Virus genome (UHGV): UHGV-0148165
Source of the DNA: a virus
DNA: 64,000 nucleotides
Reading direction: 5' to 3' (one strand)
In this document: one piece after another, positions 43,256 to 49,725 of the stretch
Layout of the letters: each line of letters opens with the position of its first letter
Numbering within the stretch: position 1 is the stretch's first letter
Made by a program: the position numbers and the translations under genes
Notes under the pieces: generated by a model
Seen by the model: only the letters and a program-made list of their open reading frames with translations
Told to the model about the DNA's origin: nothing
Databases searched by the model: none

Positions 43256-44271
43256 TAATTGAGGCCTGAGTATAAGGTGACTTATACTTGTAATCTATCT
43301 AAACGGGGAACCTCTCTAGTAGACAATCCCGTGCTAAATTGTAGGACTGCCCTTTAATAAATACTTCTATATTTAAAGAGGTATTTATGAAAAGCGGAAT
43401 TTATCAGATTAAAAATACTTTAAACAATAAAGTATATGTAGGAAGTGCTAAAGATTTTGAAAAGAGATGGAAGAGGCATTTTAAAGATTTAGAAAAAGGA
43501 TGCCATTCTTCTATAAAGCTTCAGAGGTCTTTTAACAAACATGGTAATGTGTTTGAATGTTCTATTTTGGAAGAAATTCCATATGAGAAAGATTTGATTA
43601 TTGAACGAGAAAATTTTTGGATTAAAGAGCTTAATTCTAAAATTAATGGATACAATATTGCTGATGCAACGTTTGGTGATACATGTTCTACGCATCCATT
43701 AAAAGAAGAAATTATTAAGAAACGTTCTGAAACTGTTAAAGCTAAGATGCTTAAACTTGGACCTGATGGTCGGAAAGCTCTTTACAGTAAACCCGGAAGT
43801 AAAAACGGGCGTTGGAATCCAGAAACCCATAAGTTTTGTAAGTGCGGTGTTCGCATACAAACTTCTGCTTATACTTGTAGTAAATGCAGAAATCGTTCAG
43901 GTGAAAATAATTCATTCTTTAATCATAAGCATTCAGACATAACTAAATCTAAAATATCAGAAAAGATGAAAGGTAAAAAGCCTAGTAATATTAAAAAGAT
44001 TTCATGTGATGGGGTTATTTTTGATTGTGCAGCAGATGCAGCTAGACATTTTAAAATTTCGTCTGGATTAGTTACTTATCGTGTAAAATCTGATAAATGG
44101 AATTGGTTCTACATAAATGCCTAACGACTATCCCTTTGGGGAGTAGGGTCAAGTGACTCGAAACGATAGACAACTTGCTTTAACAAGTTGGAGATATAGT
44201 CTGATCTGCATGGTGACATGCAGCTGGATATAATTCCGGGGTAAGATTAACGACCTTATCTGAACATAATG
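43256..44271 (+). mobile_element. group I self-splicing intron in td (1016 nt) carrying I-TevI
   Basis: Exon 1 stops in frame at TAA right after LG; intron 5' and 3' sequences recognised; ends with G before exon 2 CTACCATTT. Confidence 0.9.
43387..44124 (+). CDS. GIY-YIG homing endonuclease I-TevI
   Basis: 245 aa; N-terminal GIYQIKNTLNNKVYVGSAKDFEKRW GIY-YIG motif; entirely inside the td intron. Confidence 0.95.
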   Translation: MKSGIYQIKNTLNNKVYVGSAKDFEKRWKRHFKDLEKGCHSSIKLQRSFNKHGNVFECSILEEIPYEKDLIIERENFWIKELNSKINGYNIADATFGDTCSTHPLKEEIIKKRSETVKAKMLKLGPDGRKALYSKPGSKNGRWNPETHKFCKCGVRIQTSAYTCSKCRNRSGENNSFFNHKHSDITKSKISEKMKGKKPSNIKKISCDGVIFDCAADAARHFKISSGLVTYRVKSDKWNWFYINA

Positions 44272-44870: not shown

Positions 44871-45150
44871 ATATAAATCCGACTTTGATGTTAATATTCA
44901 CCGTGGTACATTTTGGGGAAATTACGTCGGTAAAGATGCTGGCAGCCGGGAGGCTGCCATTGAATTATTCAAAAAAGATTTTATACGTCGAATTAAATCC
45001 GGAGAAATAACTAAAGCACATTTAGAGCCTTTACGTGGAATGAGGCTAGGATGCACATGTAAACCAAAGCCGTGTCATGGTGATATAATAGCTCATATAG
45101 TTAACCGACTGTTTAAAGACGATTTTCAAGTTGAGGACTTATGCAATTAA
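44824..45150 (+). CDS. hypothetical protein (108 aa)
   Basis: ATG start; overlaps upstream ORF by 47 nt and nrdA start. Confidence 0.45.
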
Positions 45151-47405
45151 TTAATGTTATCAAAAGTAGTGGTGTTTCTCAGAGCTTTGACCCGCAAAAA
45201 ATTATTAAAGTTTTATCTTGGGCAGCTGAAGGAACATCAGTAGATCCTTATGAATTATATGAAAATATTAAATCTTATCTCCGTGATGGAATGACAACTG
45301 ATGATATTCAGACTATTGTCATTAAGGCCGCTGCGAATTCTATTTCGGTTGAAGAGCCTGATTATCAATATGTAGCTGCACGCTGTTTAATGTTCGCTCT
45401 TCGTAAGCATGTTTATGGGCAGTATGAACCACGTTCATTTATTGACCATATTTCTTACTGTGTAAATGAAGGTAAATATGACCCTGAATTGTTGTCAAAA
45501 TATTCAGCAGAAGAAATTACATTTTTAGAATCAAAAATTAAGCACGAGCGGGATATGGAATTTACTTATTCCGGAGCGATGCAATTAAAAGAAAAATATC
45601 TAGTCAAAGATAAAACCACCGGTCAAATTTATGAAACTCCGCAGTTTGCATTTATGACTATTGGAATGGCATTGCATCAAGATGAACCTGTTGATAGACT
45701 AAAACACGTTATCCGTTTTTATGAAGCAGTATCTACTCGACAGATTTCATTGCCAACTCCTATTATGGCTGGTTGCCGTACTCCGACTCGACAGTTTAGT
45801 TCATGTGTTGTTATTGAGGCAGGAGATTCATTGAAGTCTATCAATAAGGCTTCCGCTTCAATTGTTGAATATATCTCTAAACGCGCTGGAATTGGTATTA
45901 ACGTTGGTATGATTCGTGCCGAAGGTTCTAAGATTGGCATGGGTGAAGTACGCCATACTGGTGTTATTCCTTTTTGGAAACATTTTCAGACTGCAGTTAA
46001 ATCATGTTCACAGGGTGGAATTCGTGGCGGCGCTGCTACTGCTTATTATCCTATTTGGCATTTGGAAGTTGAAAATCTTCTCGTTTTGAAAAATAACAAA
46101 GGCGTAGAAGAAAACCGCATTCGTCATATGGATTATGGTGTTCAACTGAATGATTTGATGATGGAACGTTTTGGAAAGAACGATTACATTACTTTGTTCA
46201 GTCCCCATGAAATGGGTGGAGAGCTTTATTATTCTTATTTTAAAGACCAAGACCGTTTCCGTGAATTATACGAAGCAGCAGAAAAAGACCCTAATATTCG
46301 TAAAAAGCGTATTAAAGCCCGTGAACTATTTGAATTGCTCATGACTGAACGTTCAGGAACAGCAAGGATTTATGTACAGTTCATTGATAATACGAATAAC
46401 TATACTCCGTTTATTCGTGAAAAGGCACCTATTCGTCAGAGTAACTTGTGCTGTGAAATTGCTATTCCAACAAATGATGTGAATAGTCCTGATGCTGAAA
46501 TTGGATTGTGTACTCTCTCTGCATTCGTACTAGATAATTTTGACTGGCAAGACCAAGATAAAATTAATGAATTGGCAGAAGTTCAAGTTCGTGCTCTTGA
46601 TAATCTTTTGGATTACCAAGGATATCCAGTTCCTGAAGCAGAAAAAGCTAAAAAGCGTCGTAACCTTGGCGTAGGTGTTACCAACTATGCAGCTTGGCTG
46701 GCAAGTAACTTTGCTTCTTATGAAGATGCTAACGATTTAACACATGAACTATTTGAGAGATTACAGTATGGACTCATTAAAGCATCCATTAAGCTCGCCA
46801 AAGAAAAAGGACCTTGCGAATATTATTCAGACACTCGTTGGTCTCGAGGCGAATTACCTATCGACTGGTACAATAAAAAGATTGACCAAATCGCAGCTCC
46901 AAAATACGTTTGTGACTGGTCGTCGCTGCGGGAAGACCTCAAGCTCTTTGGCATCCGTAATAGCACATTATCAGCACTTATGCCATGTGAGTCATCTTCC
47001 CAAGTTTCTAACAGTACAAACGGTATCGAGCCTCCACGTGGACCGGTAAGTGTTAAAGAATCAAAAGAGGGTTCCTTTAATCAAGTCGTGCCCAATATTG
47101 AGCATAACATAGACCTCTATGATTATACGTGGAAATTAGCTAAGAAAGGTAATAAACCTTATCTTACACAGGTAGCTATTATGCTGAAATGGGTATGTCA
47201 ATCAGCTTCAGCGAATACATACTATGACCCGCAAATTTTTCCAAAAGGAAAGGTTCCAATGTCAATAATGATTGATGACATGCTATATGGATGGTATTAT
47301 GGCATTAAAAATTTCTATTATCATAATACCCGTGATGGTTCTGGTACTGATGATTATGAAATAGAAACTCCAAAAGCTGAAGATTGTTCATCCTGTAAAT
47401 TATGA
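45141..47405 (+). CDS. nrdA: ribonucleotide reductase large subunit NrdA
   Basis: 754 aa, same as T4 NrdA; N-terminal ATP-cone; conserved class Ia motifs. Confidence 0.95.
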   Translation: MQLINVIKSSGVSQSFDPQKIIKVLSWAAEGTSVDPYELYENIKSYLRDGMTTDDIQTIVIKAAANSISVEEPDYQYVAARCLMFALRKHVYGQYEPRSFIDHISYCVNEGKYDPELLSKYSAEEITFLESKIKHERDMEFTYSGAMQLKEKYLVKDKTTGQIYETPQFAFMTIGMALHQDEPVDRLKHVIRFYEAVSTRQISLPTPIMAGCRTPTRQFSSCVVIEAGDSLKSINKASASIVEYISKRAGIGINVGMIRAEGSKIGMGEVRHTGVIPFWKHFQTAVKSCSQGGIRGGAATAYYPIWHLEVENLLVLKNNKGVEENRIRHMDYGVQLNDLMMERFGKNDYITLFSPHEMGGELYYSYFKDQDRFRELYEAAEKDPNIRKKRIKARELFELLMTERSGTARIYVQFIDNTNNYTPFIREKAPIRQSNLCCEIAIPTNDVNSPDAEIGLCTLSAFVLDNFDWQDQDKINELAEVQVRALDNLLDYQGYPVPEAEKAKKRRNLGVGVTNYAAWLASNFASYEDANDLTHELFERLQYGLIKASIKLAKEKGPCEYYSDTRWSRGELPIDWYNKKIDQIAAPKYVCDWSSLREDLKLFGIRNSTLSALMPCESSSQVSNSTNGIEPPRGPVSVKESKEGSFNQVVPNIEHNIDLYDYTWKLAKKGNKPYLTQVAIMLKWVCQSASANTYYDPQIFPKGKVPMSIMIDDMLYGWYYGIKNFYYHNTRDGSGTDDYEIETPKAEDCSSCKL

Positions 47406-47456
47406 TATAATTTGACTCATGGACGAGTCACTATCTATTAACTAAGTGGAAAATTT

Positions 47457-48132
47457 ATGAGCACAGTTTTTAATACAAACCCAGTTGATGTTTTAAAAGA
47501 ACCTATGTTTTTTGGTTCAGGTCTTGGTATTGCGCGTTATGATATTCAACGCCATAAAGTTTTTGAAGATTTGACCGAAAAGCAATTGTCATTTTTCTGG
47601 CGTCCTGAAGAAGTAAACTTAATGATGGATGCTGCACAGTTTAATAAGCTTCCTCAGTATCAGCAAAATATTTTTACTAATAACCTGAAGTATCAATCAC
47701 TTTTGGATAGCATTCAGGGTCGTGCGCCATCTGCTGTACTTATGTCATTAATTTCAGACCCGAGTCTTGATACATGGGTTGCTACATGGACTTTTAGTGA
47801 AACTATTCACAGCCGTTCATATACACATATCATGCGAAATCTTTATACTGATCCATCGAAGGTATTTGATGAGATTGTATTAGATGAAGCTATTATGAAA
47901 CGTGCTGAATCCATTGGACGCTATTATGATGACGTTCTGATTAAAACCCGTGAATGGGAAAATGCTAAAGAATTTGTAGAACTAGCTAAAGAATCTCCTG
48001 ATGCTGTCTTTCGTTTAAACCGAGCTATTAAACAAGAAGCCGAAGCTAAACGTGCTTTAATGAAATCTCTTTACCTCTGTTTGCACGTTATTAATGCCTT
48101 AGAAGCAATTCGTTTTTATGTATCTTTTGCGT
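47457..48132 (+). CDS. nrdB: ribonucleotide reductase small subunit NrdB, exon 1
   Basis: Ends ...IRFYVSFA plus first base of the Cys codon; 3' boundary inferred from protein conservation and group I rules (exon ends in U). Confidence 0.8.
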
Positions 48133-49222
48133 AAAATGCGCCTTTAAACGGTAACGTTTATCGAAAACTCCTTTAATTGCTGGAAAGTCCTTTATAGGAA
48201 AACTAGCAGCCAAGGTTTTGCTTGCACCTTTAATTAGTATAATATAAATATGATTATACTTTTAAGAGGATGCACAATTGAACTATAGAAAAATTTGGAT
48301 AGATGCTAACGGACCTATACCTAAAGATTCTGATGGAAGAACATACGAAATCCATCATAAAGACGGTAACCGTGAAAATAATGATTTAGATAATTTGATG
48401 TGCCTTTCTATACAGGAACATTATGATATACATTTAGCTCAAAAAGATTACCAGGCTTGTCATGCTATAAAGCTTAGAATGAAATATTCTCCTGAAGAAA
48501 TTTCTGAATTAGCTTCTAAAGCCGCAAAATCTAGAGAAATCCAGATTTTTAATATCCCTGAAGTACGAGCTAAAAATATTGCCTCTATTAAATCTAAGAT
48601 AGAAAATGGTACATTTCATCTTTTAGATGGTGAAATACAGCGTAAATCTAATTTAAATAGAGCTGCATTAGGTATACATAATTTTCAACAAGCTGAGCAT
48701 ATTGCAAAAGTTAAAGAACGCAATATTGCAGCTATAAAAGAAGGTACTCATGTATTTTGCGGTGGTAAAATGCAGTCAGAAACTCAATCAAAACGGGTAA
48801 ATGACGGTTCACATCATTTCTTATCAGAAGACCATAAGAAAAGAACATCAGCAAAAACATTAGAAATGGTTAAGAACGGGACCCATCCTGCACAAAAAGA
48901 AATCACATGTGATTTCTGTGGTCACATTGGTAAAAGTCCTGGATTTTATCTAAAACATAATGACAGATGTAAATTAAATCCAAATAGAATTCAATTGAAT
49001 TGTCCATATTGTGATAAGAAAGATTTATCACCATCAACATATAAACGATGGCACGGCGACAATTGCAAAACAAGGTTCAACGACTAGTCTTCGGACGTAG
49101 GGTCAAGCGACTCGAAATGGGGAGAATCCCTCCGGGATTGTGATATAGTCTGGACTGCATGGTAACATGCAGCAGTTCATAAGAGAACGGGTTGAGAATT
49201 AGCGAGCTCAATCGAACATACG
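48133..49222 (+). mobile_element. group I intron in nrdB (about 1090 nt) carrying an HNH endonuclease
   Basis: Exon 1 reading frame hits a stop immediately after the conserved VSFA; 3' region shares core blocks with the td intron (TAGGGTCAAG-GACTCGAAA, ATATAGTCTG..CTGCATGGT-ACATGCAG); ends in G. Confidence 0.75.
48278..49087 (+). CDS. HNH homing endonuclease, I-TevIII-like (269 aa, TTG start)
   Basis: HNH motif EIHHKDGNRENNDLDNL; AAGAGGA SD 7 nt before TTG; C-terminal Cys/His zinc-finger-like region; middle and late promoter motifs upstream. Confidence 0.75.
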   Translation: MNYRKIWIDANGPIPKDSDGRTYEIHHKDGNRENNDLDNLMCLSIQEHYDIHLAQKDYQACHAIKLRMKYSPEEISELASKAAKSREIQIFNIPEVRAKNIASIKSKIENGTFHLLDGEIQRKSNLNRAALGIHNFQQAEHIAKVKERNIAAIKEGTHVFCGGKMQSETQSKRVNDGSHHFLSEDHKKRTSAKTLEMVKNGTHPAQKEITCDFCGHIGKSPGFYLKHNDRCKLNPNRIQLNCPYCDKKDLSPSTYKRWHGDNCKTRFND

Positions 49223-49725
49223 GTACCTTTAACTTCCATAAAAACATGGAAATCATGGAAGGTAATGCCAAGATTATGAAGTTCATTGCACGCGATGAAC
49301 AGCTTCACCTTAAAGGCACCCAATATATTATTCGTCAACTTCAATCTGGTACTGATGGCGATGAATGGGTTAAAATTGCTCAAGAGTGTGAACAAGAAGC
49401 AGTTGATATTTTCATGGAAGTTAACCGCCAAGAAAAAGATTGGGCAGTTCATTTATTTAAAGATGGCGATGTTCCTGGATTAAATACAAATAGCATGTGG
49501 AGCTTTATTGATTACTTAACTGTATCTCGTATGAAACAGTGCGGTCTTCCATGCCCAATTACCGATGCTCCGGTTAAACATCCATATCCTTGGATTCGTG
49601 AATATCTTAATTCTGATAATGTTCAATCCGCGCCACAAGAAGTAGAACTGTCATCTTATCTTGTTGCACAGATTGATAATGATGTTGATGATAAAGTTAT
49701 GATGAGTTTTAAAAAATACTTTTAA
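49223..49725 (+). CDS. nrdB: ribonucleotide reductase small subunit NrdB, exon 2
   Basis: Continues (C)TFNFHKNMEIMEGNAKIMKFIARDEQLH..., collinear with class Ia R2. Confidence 0.8.

Follow-up and report, generated by a model that had tools for sequence, protein, structure and literature searches.

The nrdB intron of phage RB3 and its endonuclease, I-TevIII, for which Eddy & Gold (1991) is reportedly the cited source, are among the closest described relatives of the element considered here. In the account of Robbins et al. (2007; PMC1865063), RB3 I-TevIII belongs to the H-N-H enzymes, binds DNA through a separate domain that carries two zinc fingers of the form CX2CX12-13HX3C, and is responsible for homing of the RB3 nrdB intron. 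The mutated residues were H26, H27, N39 and H48, together with C211, C214, C242 and C245; replacement of the first-finger cysteines by alanine reduced both DNA binding and cleavage (PMC1865063). In T4, the nrdB intron of which has been called self-splicing (PMC2790892), I-TevIII is defective through an internal deletion, whereas the RB3 version is functional (PMC2988022, PMC2790892, PMC1865063). This literature agrees with a preliminary description of the present DNA, made from its letters alone, which had given a truncated, non-functional ORF in T4 and an intact I-TevIII in relatives.

We consider, with a probability of roughly 95%, that the element described below represents the nrdB group I intron of T-even phages in its full-length, mobile form. 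Near-identity to the RB3 and T4 copies, the structure of the RNA and matches of the encoded protein to HNH_3 and PHROG 12324 all favour the assignment to an nrdB group I intron with full-length I-TevIII that had been proposed at the outset, and we found nothing that contradicts it. It should be noted that the boundaries, the integrity of the ORF, the structure and the identity to studied copies come from the present analysis, whereas splicing, promoter use, cleavage and homing are known from experiments with T4 and RB3; we infer the same behaviour for the copy in the window, by which we mean the whole 64,000-nt stretch of DNA that was analysed. The window belongs to a T4-like (Tequatrovirus) genome; its bases 39001-64000 share 97.9% identity with Escherichia phage vB_ECOLIGBLB0003 and 96.9% with RB3. 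On the + strand the genes follow the order td (split by its own intron), nrdA (45141-47405), nrdB, denA and rnlA, as they do in T4 and RB3 when those genomes are read on the minus strand. The nrdB gene spans 47457-49725 on the + strand and is divided as follows.

47457-48132, + strand: nrdB exon 1, comprising codons 1-225 and the first base of Cys226 (ORF list).
48133-49222, + strand: group I (IA-type) intron, predicted to be self-splicing, 1090 nt (sequence identity, Rfam RF00028, hand-built structure).
49223-49725, + strand: nrdB exon 2, with its stop at 49725 (ORF list and comparison with RB33).

The 3' end of exon 1 at 48132 reads ...ATTCGTTTTTATGTATCTTTTGCGT / ...TTTTGCGT (…IRFYVSFA plus the T of the Cys codon), and exon 2 starts at 49223 with GTACCTTTAACTTCCAT / GTACCTTTAAC. 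The intron between them begins with AAAATGCGCC and ends with ...GAACATACG; it directly follows U48132 and its final base is G49222. When 48132 is joined to 49223, the sequence becomes …SFACTFNFHKNMEIMEGNAK… / ...IRFYVSFACTFNFHKNMEIMEGNAK... within a 1179-nt ORF of 393 codons, so that, at the level of sequence, precise excision of 48133-49222 restores the nrdB reading frame; the predicted ligated-exon junction is ...UUUUGCGU/GUACCUUU.... The conceptually spliced NrdB aligns without gaps to NrdB of the intron-less phage RB33 (393 amino acids, 387/393 identical) and has the same SFACTFNFHK junction. In the uninterrupted nrdB DNA of RB33, the insertion point reads ...TTTTGCAT/GTACCTTT..., and the junction cannot slide by one base either way because the flanking bases differ. 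The intron limits given in the RB3 and T4 records share the boundary sequences of the window, with introns of 1091 and 598 nt, respectively. Thus, the break after IRFYVSFA at 48132/49223, which the preliminary description had placed from protein conservation and the U/G rule, stands, as does its estimate of about 1090 nt for the intervening sequence.

Recognition of the ribozyme by covariance model is probably complicated by the ORF. At the gathering threshold, a search of the whole window with Rfam gave no match. A permissive scan of the window returned RF00028 (Intron_gpI) at 36.6 bits (gathering score 50; E 2.6e-07), in an alignment that is good over the 3' half (J6/7, P7, P3', P8, J8/7 and P9) and has the 5' half misplaced onto ORF sequence. 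The sub-threshold score most likely reflects the insert of about 840 nt in the loop of P6a, where the ORF lies. A natural homologue lacking the ORF, from vB_EcoM_CE1, scores 68.6 bits against RF00028 (gathering score 50; E 1.7e-16; model positions 1-253), and the partly deleted copy of FL12 scores 34 bits. The CE1 core departs from that of the window by six substitutions, three of them unpaired and three preserving a pair, and by one unpaired single-base insertion. Seven other permissive Rfam matches (rseX, snoRNAs and others; E 0.1-9) were set aside as noise. A structure from P1 to P9.2 was drawn by hand from the window sequence itself; it has 71 pairs and is given here in window coordinates.

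48129-48141, + strand: P1, in which exon GCGU and intron A pair with the internal guide UGCGC, with a U48132.G48138 wobble at the splice site; present in the minimum-free-energy fold.
48145-48160, + strand: P2, with a GUAA loop.
48168-48173 with 49119-49124, + strand: P3.
48178-48183 with 48203-48208, + strand: P4.
48188-48199, + strand: P5.
48210-48211 with 49074-49075, + strand: P6.
48215-48221 with 49065-49071, + strand: P6a.
49082-49086 with 49146-49150, + strand: P7.
49087-49096, + strand: P7.1, GUC-UUCG-GAC; present in the minimum-free-energy fold.
49100-49113, + strand: P7.2, GGGUC-AAGC-GACUC; present in the minimum-free-energy fold.
49125-49139, + strand: P8.
49155-49172, + strand: P9, with a GUAA loop.
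49175-49188, + strand: P9.1.
49192-49211, + strand: P9.2.
48145-48221, + strand: 5' half of the ribozyme, from P2 through the 5' strand of P6a.
49065-49222, + strand: 3' half of the ribozyme, from P6a' through P9.2 to the terminal G at 49222.

Evidence for this structure includes an unconstrained fold of the core without the ORF, which recovers P1, P4, P5, P6, P6a, P7.1, P7.2, P9, P9.1, P9.2 and a five-pair P8 (z -2.5); it misses P2 and cannot yield both arms of the P3/P7 pseudoknot. All 71 pairs, those of the pseudoknot included, are standard in each of four distinct cores (window, RB3 type, T4 and NP4), as against 32-45% paired in a control where the partners were slid by 1-3 columns. The four cores are closely similar and the covariation among them is weak, amounting to one compensatory change each in P2 (A-U to G-C in NP4) and P9 and one wobble change each in P2, P6a and P9; a shuffle control (23/500) is not decisive. 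For P10, the pairing of exon 2 with the guide sequence, inspection by eye found at most two pairs. Subgroup IA introns are defined by two additional hairpins, P7.1 and P7.2, that lie between P7 and P3', and the modelled structure, which contains both, would place this intron in the subgroup. That the ribozyme works is argued chiefly from its near-identity to the self-splicing intron of T4.

The loop of P6a is filled by a reading frame that we assign to I-TevIII.

48278-49087, + strand: I-TevIII gene, TTG start, 269 codons plus TAG (Pfam, PHROG, identity to RB3).

As had been reported from the sequence, this is a 269-residue HNH ORF preceded by AAGAGGA and initiated at TTG. It contains EIHHKDGNRENNDLDNL and has no internal frameshift or stop. 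Residues 4-48 match Pfam HNH_3 at 47.3 bits (cut-off 24.8), and the protein aligns from 1 to 269 of 269 with PHROG 12324, ‘intron-like DNA endonuclease’ (E 4e-192). Two CX2CX12-13HX3C zinc fingers lie at residues 211-231 and 242-263, with all eight ligands intact. By its position at the same nrdB site, its full length and its near-identity to the RB3 protein, the ORF is an orthologue of I-TevIII, and by analogy with the RB3 enzyme it would be expected to cleave DNA. A PDB sequence search revealed no solved relative, the best matches (E ~0.5) being meaningless. A Pfam match to FlgM at residues 74-114 (26.6 bits against 25) is most likely due to chance in a Lys/Ser/Ala-rich helix. The gene and the ribozyme share bases: the last eight codons and the stop overlap P6a', P6', J6/7 and P7, and the TAG (49085-49087) takes up the final two bases of the P7 5' strand together with the first base of P7.1.

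TTG rarely serves as a start codon, and one review refers, in generic terms, to an ‘AUG initiation codon’ for the three intron ORFs (PMC2988022), so translation from another codon, for instance the ATG at codon 41, has to be weighed. An in-frame TAA at 48263-48265 means that no start further upstream is possible, and the AAGAGGA Shine-Dalgarno sequence (48264-48270) ends 7 nt before the TTG at 48278. The ATG at codon 41 is the first in frame, and a start there would drop His26, His27 and Asn39, which were targeted as residues that are conserved within the catalytic domain. When counted from the TTG, H26, H27, N39, H48, C211, C214, C242 and C245 are all present; the published residue numbering fits this start only, and supports it independently of annotation. 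In addition, the RB3 and NP4 ORFs are annotated from the same TTG. We therefore regard a different start as very improbable and take the TTG as the start of I-TevIII.

One residue of the protein may bear on its activity. The base A48935, where the closest records have G, converts Gly220 in the first zinc finger to Ser. Gly220 is found in the seven closest records, in RB3, in T4 and in the 88%-identical NP4 protein, and among the records examined Ser220 occurs in the window only; it is the sole private change of this copy and, judged from sequence, is probably neutral. An intron that splices while Gly220Ser inactivates its I-TevIII would leave the element immobile as in T4. This is unlikely, if less so than a different start codon. 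Its attraction lies in the singularity of Ser220 and in the effect, noted above, of alanine substitutions in the same finger (PMC1865063); against it, residue 220 is in a loop and is not a zinc ligand, and the eight ligands and the CX2CX12HX3C spacing are intact here. Apart from this residue, the ORF matches those of many independent isolates exactly. An active enzyme in a mobile intron remains the preferred reading.

Expression of the endonuclease appears to be governed by signals within the intron itself, upstream of the ORF.

48217-48250, + strand: internal endonuclease promoters, predicted here (sequence, identity to T4, PMC2988022).
48223-48274, + strand: predicted RNA hairpin that pairs the Shine-Dalgarno sequence (fold of 48215-48300).
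48216-48235, + strand: putative operator for I-TevIII, which in an ungapped scan agrees at 17/20 positions with the homing site (-8 to +12 around the insertion site).

The predicted middle promoter comprises a MotA-box-like TTTGCTTGC (48217-48225), a 12-bp spacer and TATAAT (48238-48243), and the late promoter consensus TATAAATA lies at 48243-48250. By the T4 consensus, TTTGCTTGC with a 12-bp spacer and TATAAT has the geometry of a T4 middle promoter. Both motifs noticed at the outset are thus in place, TGCTT being at 48219-48223 within TTTGCTTGC and TATAAATA where given above. In the window, TATAAATA occurs 10 times against 9.7 expected from shuffles and is therefore not enriched, so that the motif alone is no evidence of a promoter; the weight comes from identity to the mapped T4 sequence. 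Between the 5' splice site and codon 22, T4 and the window differ only by one base in the P5 loop, and primer extension has mapped both the middle and the late promoters for the three intron endonuclease genes (PMC2988022). Upstream of the ORF, a scan with the sigma-70 consensus gave no promoter, and sites were no more frequent than in shuffles; since T4 middle and late promoters have no -35 hexamer, such an outcome is to be expected.

The hairpin (-16.5 kcal/mol, z -2.9, in a fold of 48215-48300) pairs AGAGG at 48265-48269, with TATAAATA across its apex. This fits the published model, in which such a hairpin hides the ribosome-binding site in read-through transcripts and late-promoter transcripts begin inside it (PMC2988022). 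It has also been suggested that each intron enzyme has an operator resembling its homing site; self-repression has been shown for I-TevI and is a proposal for I-TevIII (PMC2988022). It is conceivable, at rather less than even odds, that 48216-48235 combines three roles, as the 5' strand of P6a, as carrier of the MotA-box part of the middle promoter and as a putative operator for autorepression by I-TevIII.

Taken together, these features suggest the following scheme. The nrdB gene would be transcribed through the intron, and the RNA would fold into a group IA ribozyme with the U.G wobble in P1, the P3/P7 pseudoknot, P7.1 and P7.2, and the terminal G. Two guanosine-initiated transesterifications would then excise the intron and join 48132 to 49223, restoring the 393-residue NrdB. 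I-TevIII, encoded in the P6a loop and served by middle and late promoters of its own within the intron, would be translated from the UUG at 48278, its ribosome-binding site being buried in read-through transcripts and free only in those from the late promoter. The product has an N-terminal HNH nuclease domain and a C-terminal DNA-binding region with two zinc fingers. In a mixed infection, repair from an intron-containing genome would copy the intron into the cut allele.

The preliminary description had placed the intact form in ‘a few relatives’, which is an understatement, as about 85-88 phage records hold it at full length. A megablast search with the 1090 bases matched 191 phage records, 85 of them covering at least 80% of the query, and the closest (PV295200, KX130861/SHFML-11 and others) are 99.9% identical, with one base different over 1090 nt. 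By tblastn, the protein is present to at least 80% in 88 records, and almost all of the matches listed form a single piece; the copies of the Gelderlandvirus phages S16 and NP4 are about 88% identical. Other forms of the intron are T4-type deletions, the short FL12 version (590 nt), ORF-less versions of 304 nt and the frameshifted version of U5. With the uninterrupted junction as query, 445 of the 555 matching records cover at least 80% in one place, a count that includes joined ORF-less introns. Many deposited records give nrdB as two CDS and name the endonuclease a ‘hypothetical protein’.

The element is already known, both from near-identical deposited sequences and through a biochemically characterised orthologue; it is a classic of phage molecular biology and carries little weight as a discovery. 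For the source genome, the analysis has value as annotation, in giving the exact splice junction, the TTG start and the coordinates of the ribozyme helices. Full-length, T4-type deleted, ORF-less, frameshifted (U5) and empty alleles coexist among close relatives, and this coexistence fits the cycle of gain, decay and loss proposed for homing endonuclease genes. Deletions in the nrdB intron are bounded by short direct repeats.

How the locus compares with the individual systems can now be set out. The intron is 98.9% identical to that of RB3, in whose record nrdB is annotated as a join of two pieces and the ORF is named ‘I-TevIII: homing endonuclease’. The two share the gene, the insertion site, the place of the ORF, the TTG start, the length of 269 residues, the HNH motif and the two zinc fingers. 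The alignment to known I-TevIII, put forward earlier as a check, gives 265/269 identical residues with the same start and stop; the changes from RB3 to the window are D23Y, V129A, G220S and A265T. Tyr23 is common to the NP4 and U5 copies and Asp23 is therefore not the usual state among those compared. The base change that converts Ala265 in RB3 to Thr265 in the window also turns a U.G pair of P6a into U-A. Several differences from RB3 in the core, in this pair, in two P9 pairs and in the P8 loop, keep pairing or are in loops, and the RB3 intron has one extra A near its 3' end.

A further difference concerns mobE, which in T4 and RB3 lies between nrdA and nrdB and is absent from that place in the window, where nrdA runs to 47405 and nrdB begins at 47457. 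Since mobE mobilises the defective nrdB intron of T4 (PMC2790892), the intron might be maintained by a neighbouring free-standing endonuclease (mobE trans-homing) in place of its own enzyme. The window contains no mobE and the intron's own endonuclease gene is intact, and we consider this the least probable of the alternatives raised here; homing by the resident I-TevIII is preferred.

Over the positions that it retains, the T4 copy is closer still. Its intron of 598 nt is that of the window minus 491 nt and one base of the P5 loop (window 48196), with one substitution; over the 598 shared positions T4 differs at one base, the private A48935 in the ORF, as against seven differences between RB3 and T4. 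The promoters, hairpin, Shine-Dalgarno sequence, TTG and splice sites of T4 are those of the window. The missing 491 nt correspond to window 48336 to 48826, or an equivalent register, and the direct repeats that bound the deletion, GAAGAACATA (48336-48345) and GAAGACCATA (48827-48836), are imperfect; the deletion takes out the HNH motif and shifts the frame. By these base counts, the window lineage, itself undeleted, stands nearer to the T4 copy than RB3 does. That this lineage, and not that of RB3, is the direct undeleted parent of the T4 intron is a separate and tentative suggestion, to which we give somewhat less than an even chance.

The ORF-less introns of 304 nt (vB_EcoM_CE1, PD112 and BYEP01) have the same site, ribozyme core, promoters, hairpin and Shine-Dalgarno sequence, and lack the ORF between ACAATTG repeats (window 48274-48280 and 49059-49065). 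The retention of expression signals in introns without an ORF to express suggests, from the sequences compared, that the ORF was lost secondarily.

Finally, the td intron of the window (43256-44271; 1016 nt; I-TevI ORF at 43387-44124, 245 residues) resembles that of nrdB in being of group IA, in interrupting a gene of nucleotide metabolism and in carrying an endonuclease ORF. The core blocks that had been seen to be common to the two introns are 29/32 identical at 49142-49173 (J8/7, P7' and P9) versus 44193-44224, and 20/21 identical at 49097-49117 (P7.2) versus 44143-44163. The remainder is unrelated by blastn, and the td intron encodes a GIY-YIG enzyme whereas that of nrdB encodes an HNH enzyme. 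With permissive blastn, introns from many unrelated phages (including Twort and Bacillus, Pectobacterium and Yersinia phages) show the same 3' core. On this distribution of sequence, the blocks shared with td are signatures of the family and are nothing peculiar to the source phage.

The ACAATTG direct repeat lies on both sides of the I-TevIII open reading frame of the nrdB intron (window 48274-48280 and 49059-49065), and the 304-nt introns of CE1, PD112 and BYEP01, in which the frame is absent, look like the outcome of a deletion between its two copies. The promoters, the hairpin and the Shine-Dalgarno sequence are still present in these three introns, which suggests that the frame was lost secondarily. 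The defective I-TevIII of T4 arose through a 491-nt deletion with an imperfect direct repeat at either edge, GAAGAACATA at window 48336-48345 and GAAGACCATA at 48827-48836. The U5 copy is a further decayed I-TevIII; its late-promoter region is short by 7 nt, and a 2-nt deletion shifts the reading frame past codon 52. Two of the introns compared are located as follows.

L005 (CE1), 801-1104: ORF-less nrdB intron, 304 nt
L006 (U5), 801-1883: nrdB intron copy, record AY262133

Across its 1090 nt, the nrdB intron in the window differs from that of PV295200, one of the closest deposited records, solely at 48935, where an A gives Ser220, at a loop position in the first zinc finger. Codon 220 has G, and thus specifies Gly, in all other copies examined (the closest records, RB3, T4 and NP4). 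The stretch of the protein from the HNH domain to the zinc fingers contains, at residues 94-205 (window about 48557-48892), five tandem repeats of approximately 22 amino acids, each ending in G-[T/S/I]-[H/F]-x (at residues 111, 132, 156, 177 and 201); these repeats have no match in Pfam and are presumably DNA-binding 'beads'. Residues 74-114 score 26.6 bits against Pfam FlgM (anti-sigma-28), marginally over the cut-off of 25; a helix rich in Lys, Ser and Ala most likely matches the profile by chance here.

The final eight codons and the stop codon of I-TevIII (window 49065-49087) overlap P6a', P6', J6/7 and P7 of the ribozyme core, and the Ala/Thr difference at residue 265 between RB3 and the window is at the same time a difference between U.G and U-A in P6a. 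Neither the nrdB intron nor the td intron is detected by Rfam at the gathering threshold.

Window 43256-44271: td group I intron, 1016 nt
Window 43387-44124: td intron ORF, 245 aa, in the position of I-TevI in T4

In several deposited genomes (PV295200, PV654517, ON229909 and others), nrdB appears as a pair of unconnected CDS, and the endonuclease carries the label 'hypothetical protein'; in ON229909, nrdB exon 2 is annotated 'major capsid protein'.

The spacer between nrdA and nrdB is 51 nt (window 47406-47456) and includes a terminator-like hairpin (47413-47430). In T4, mobE and nrdB.1 are located between the two genes, and RB3 has a 732-nt mobE in the same gap; the window phage therefore combines an intact I-TevIII with the absence of mobE.
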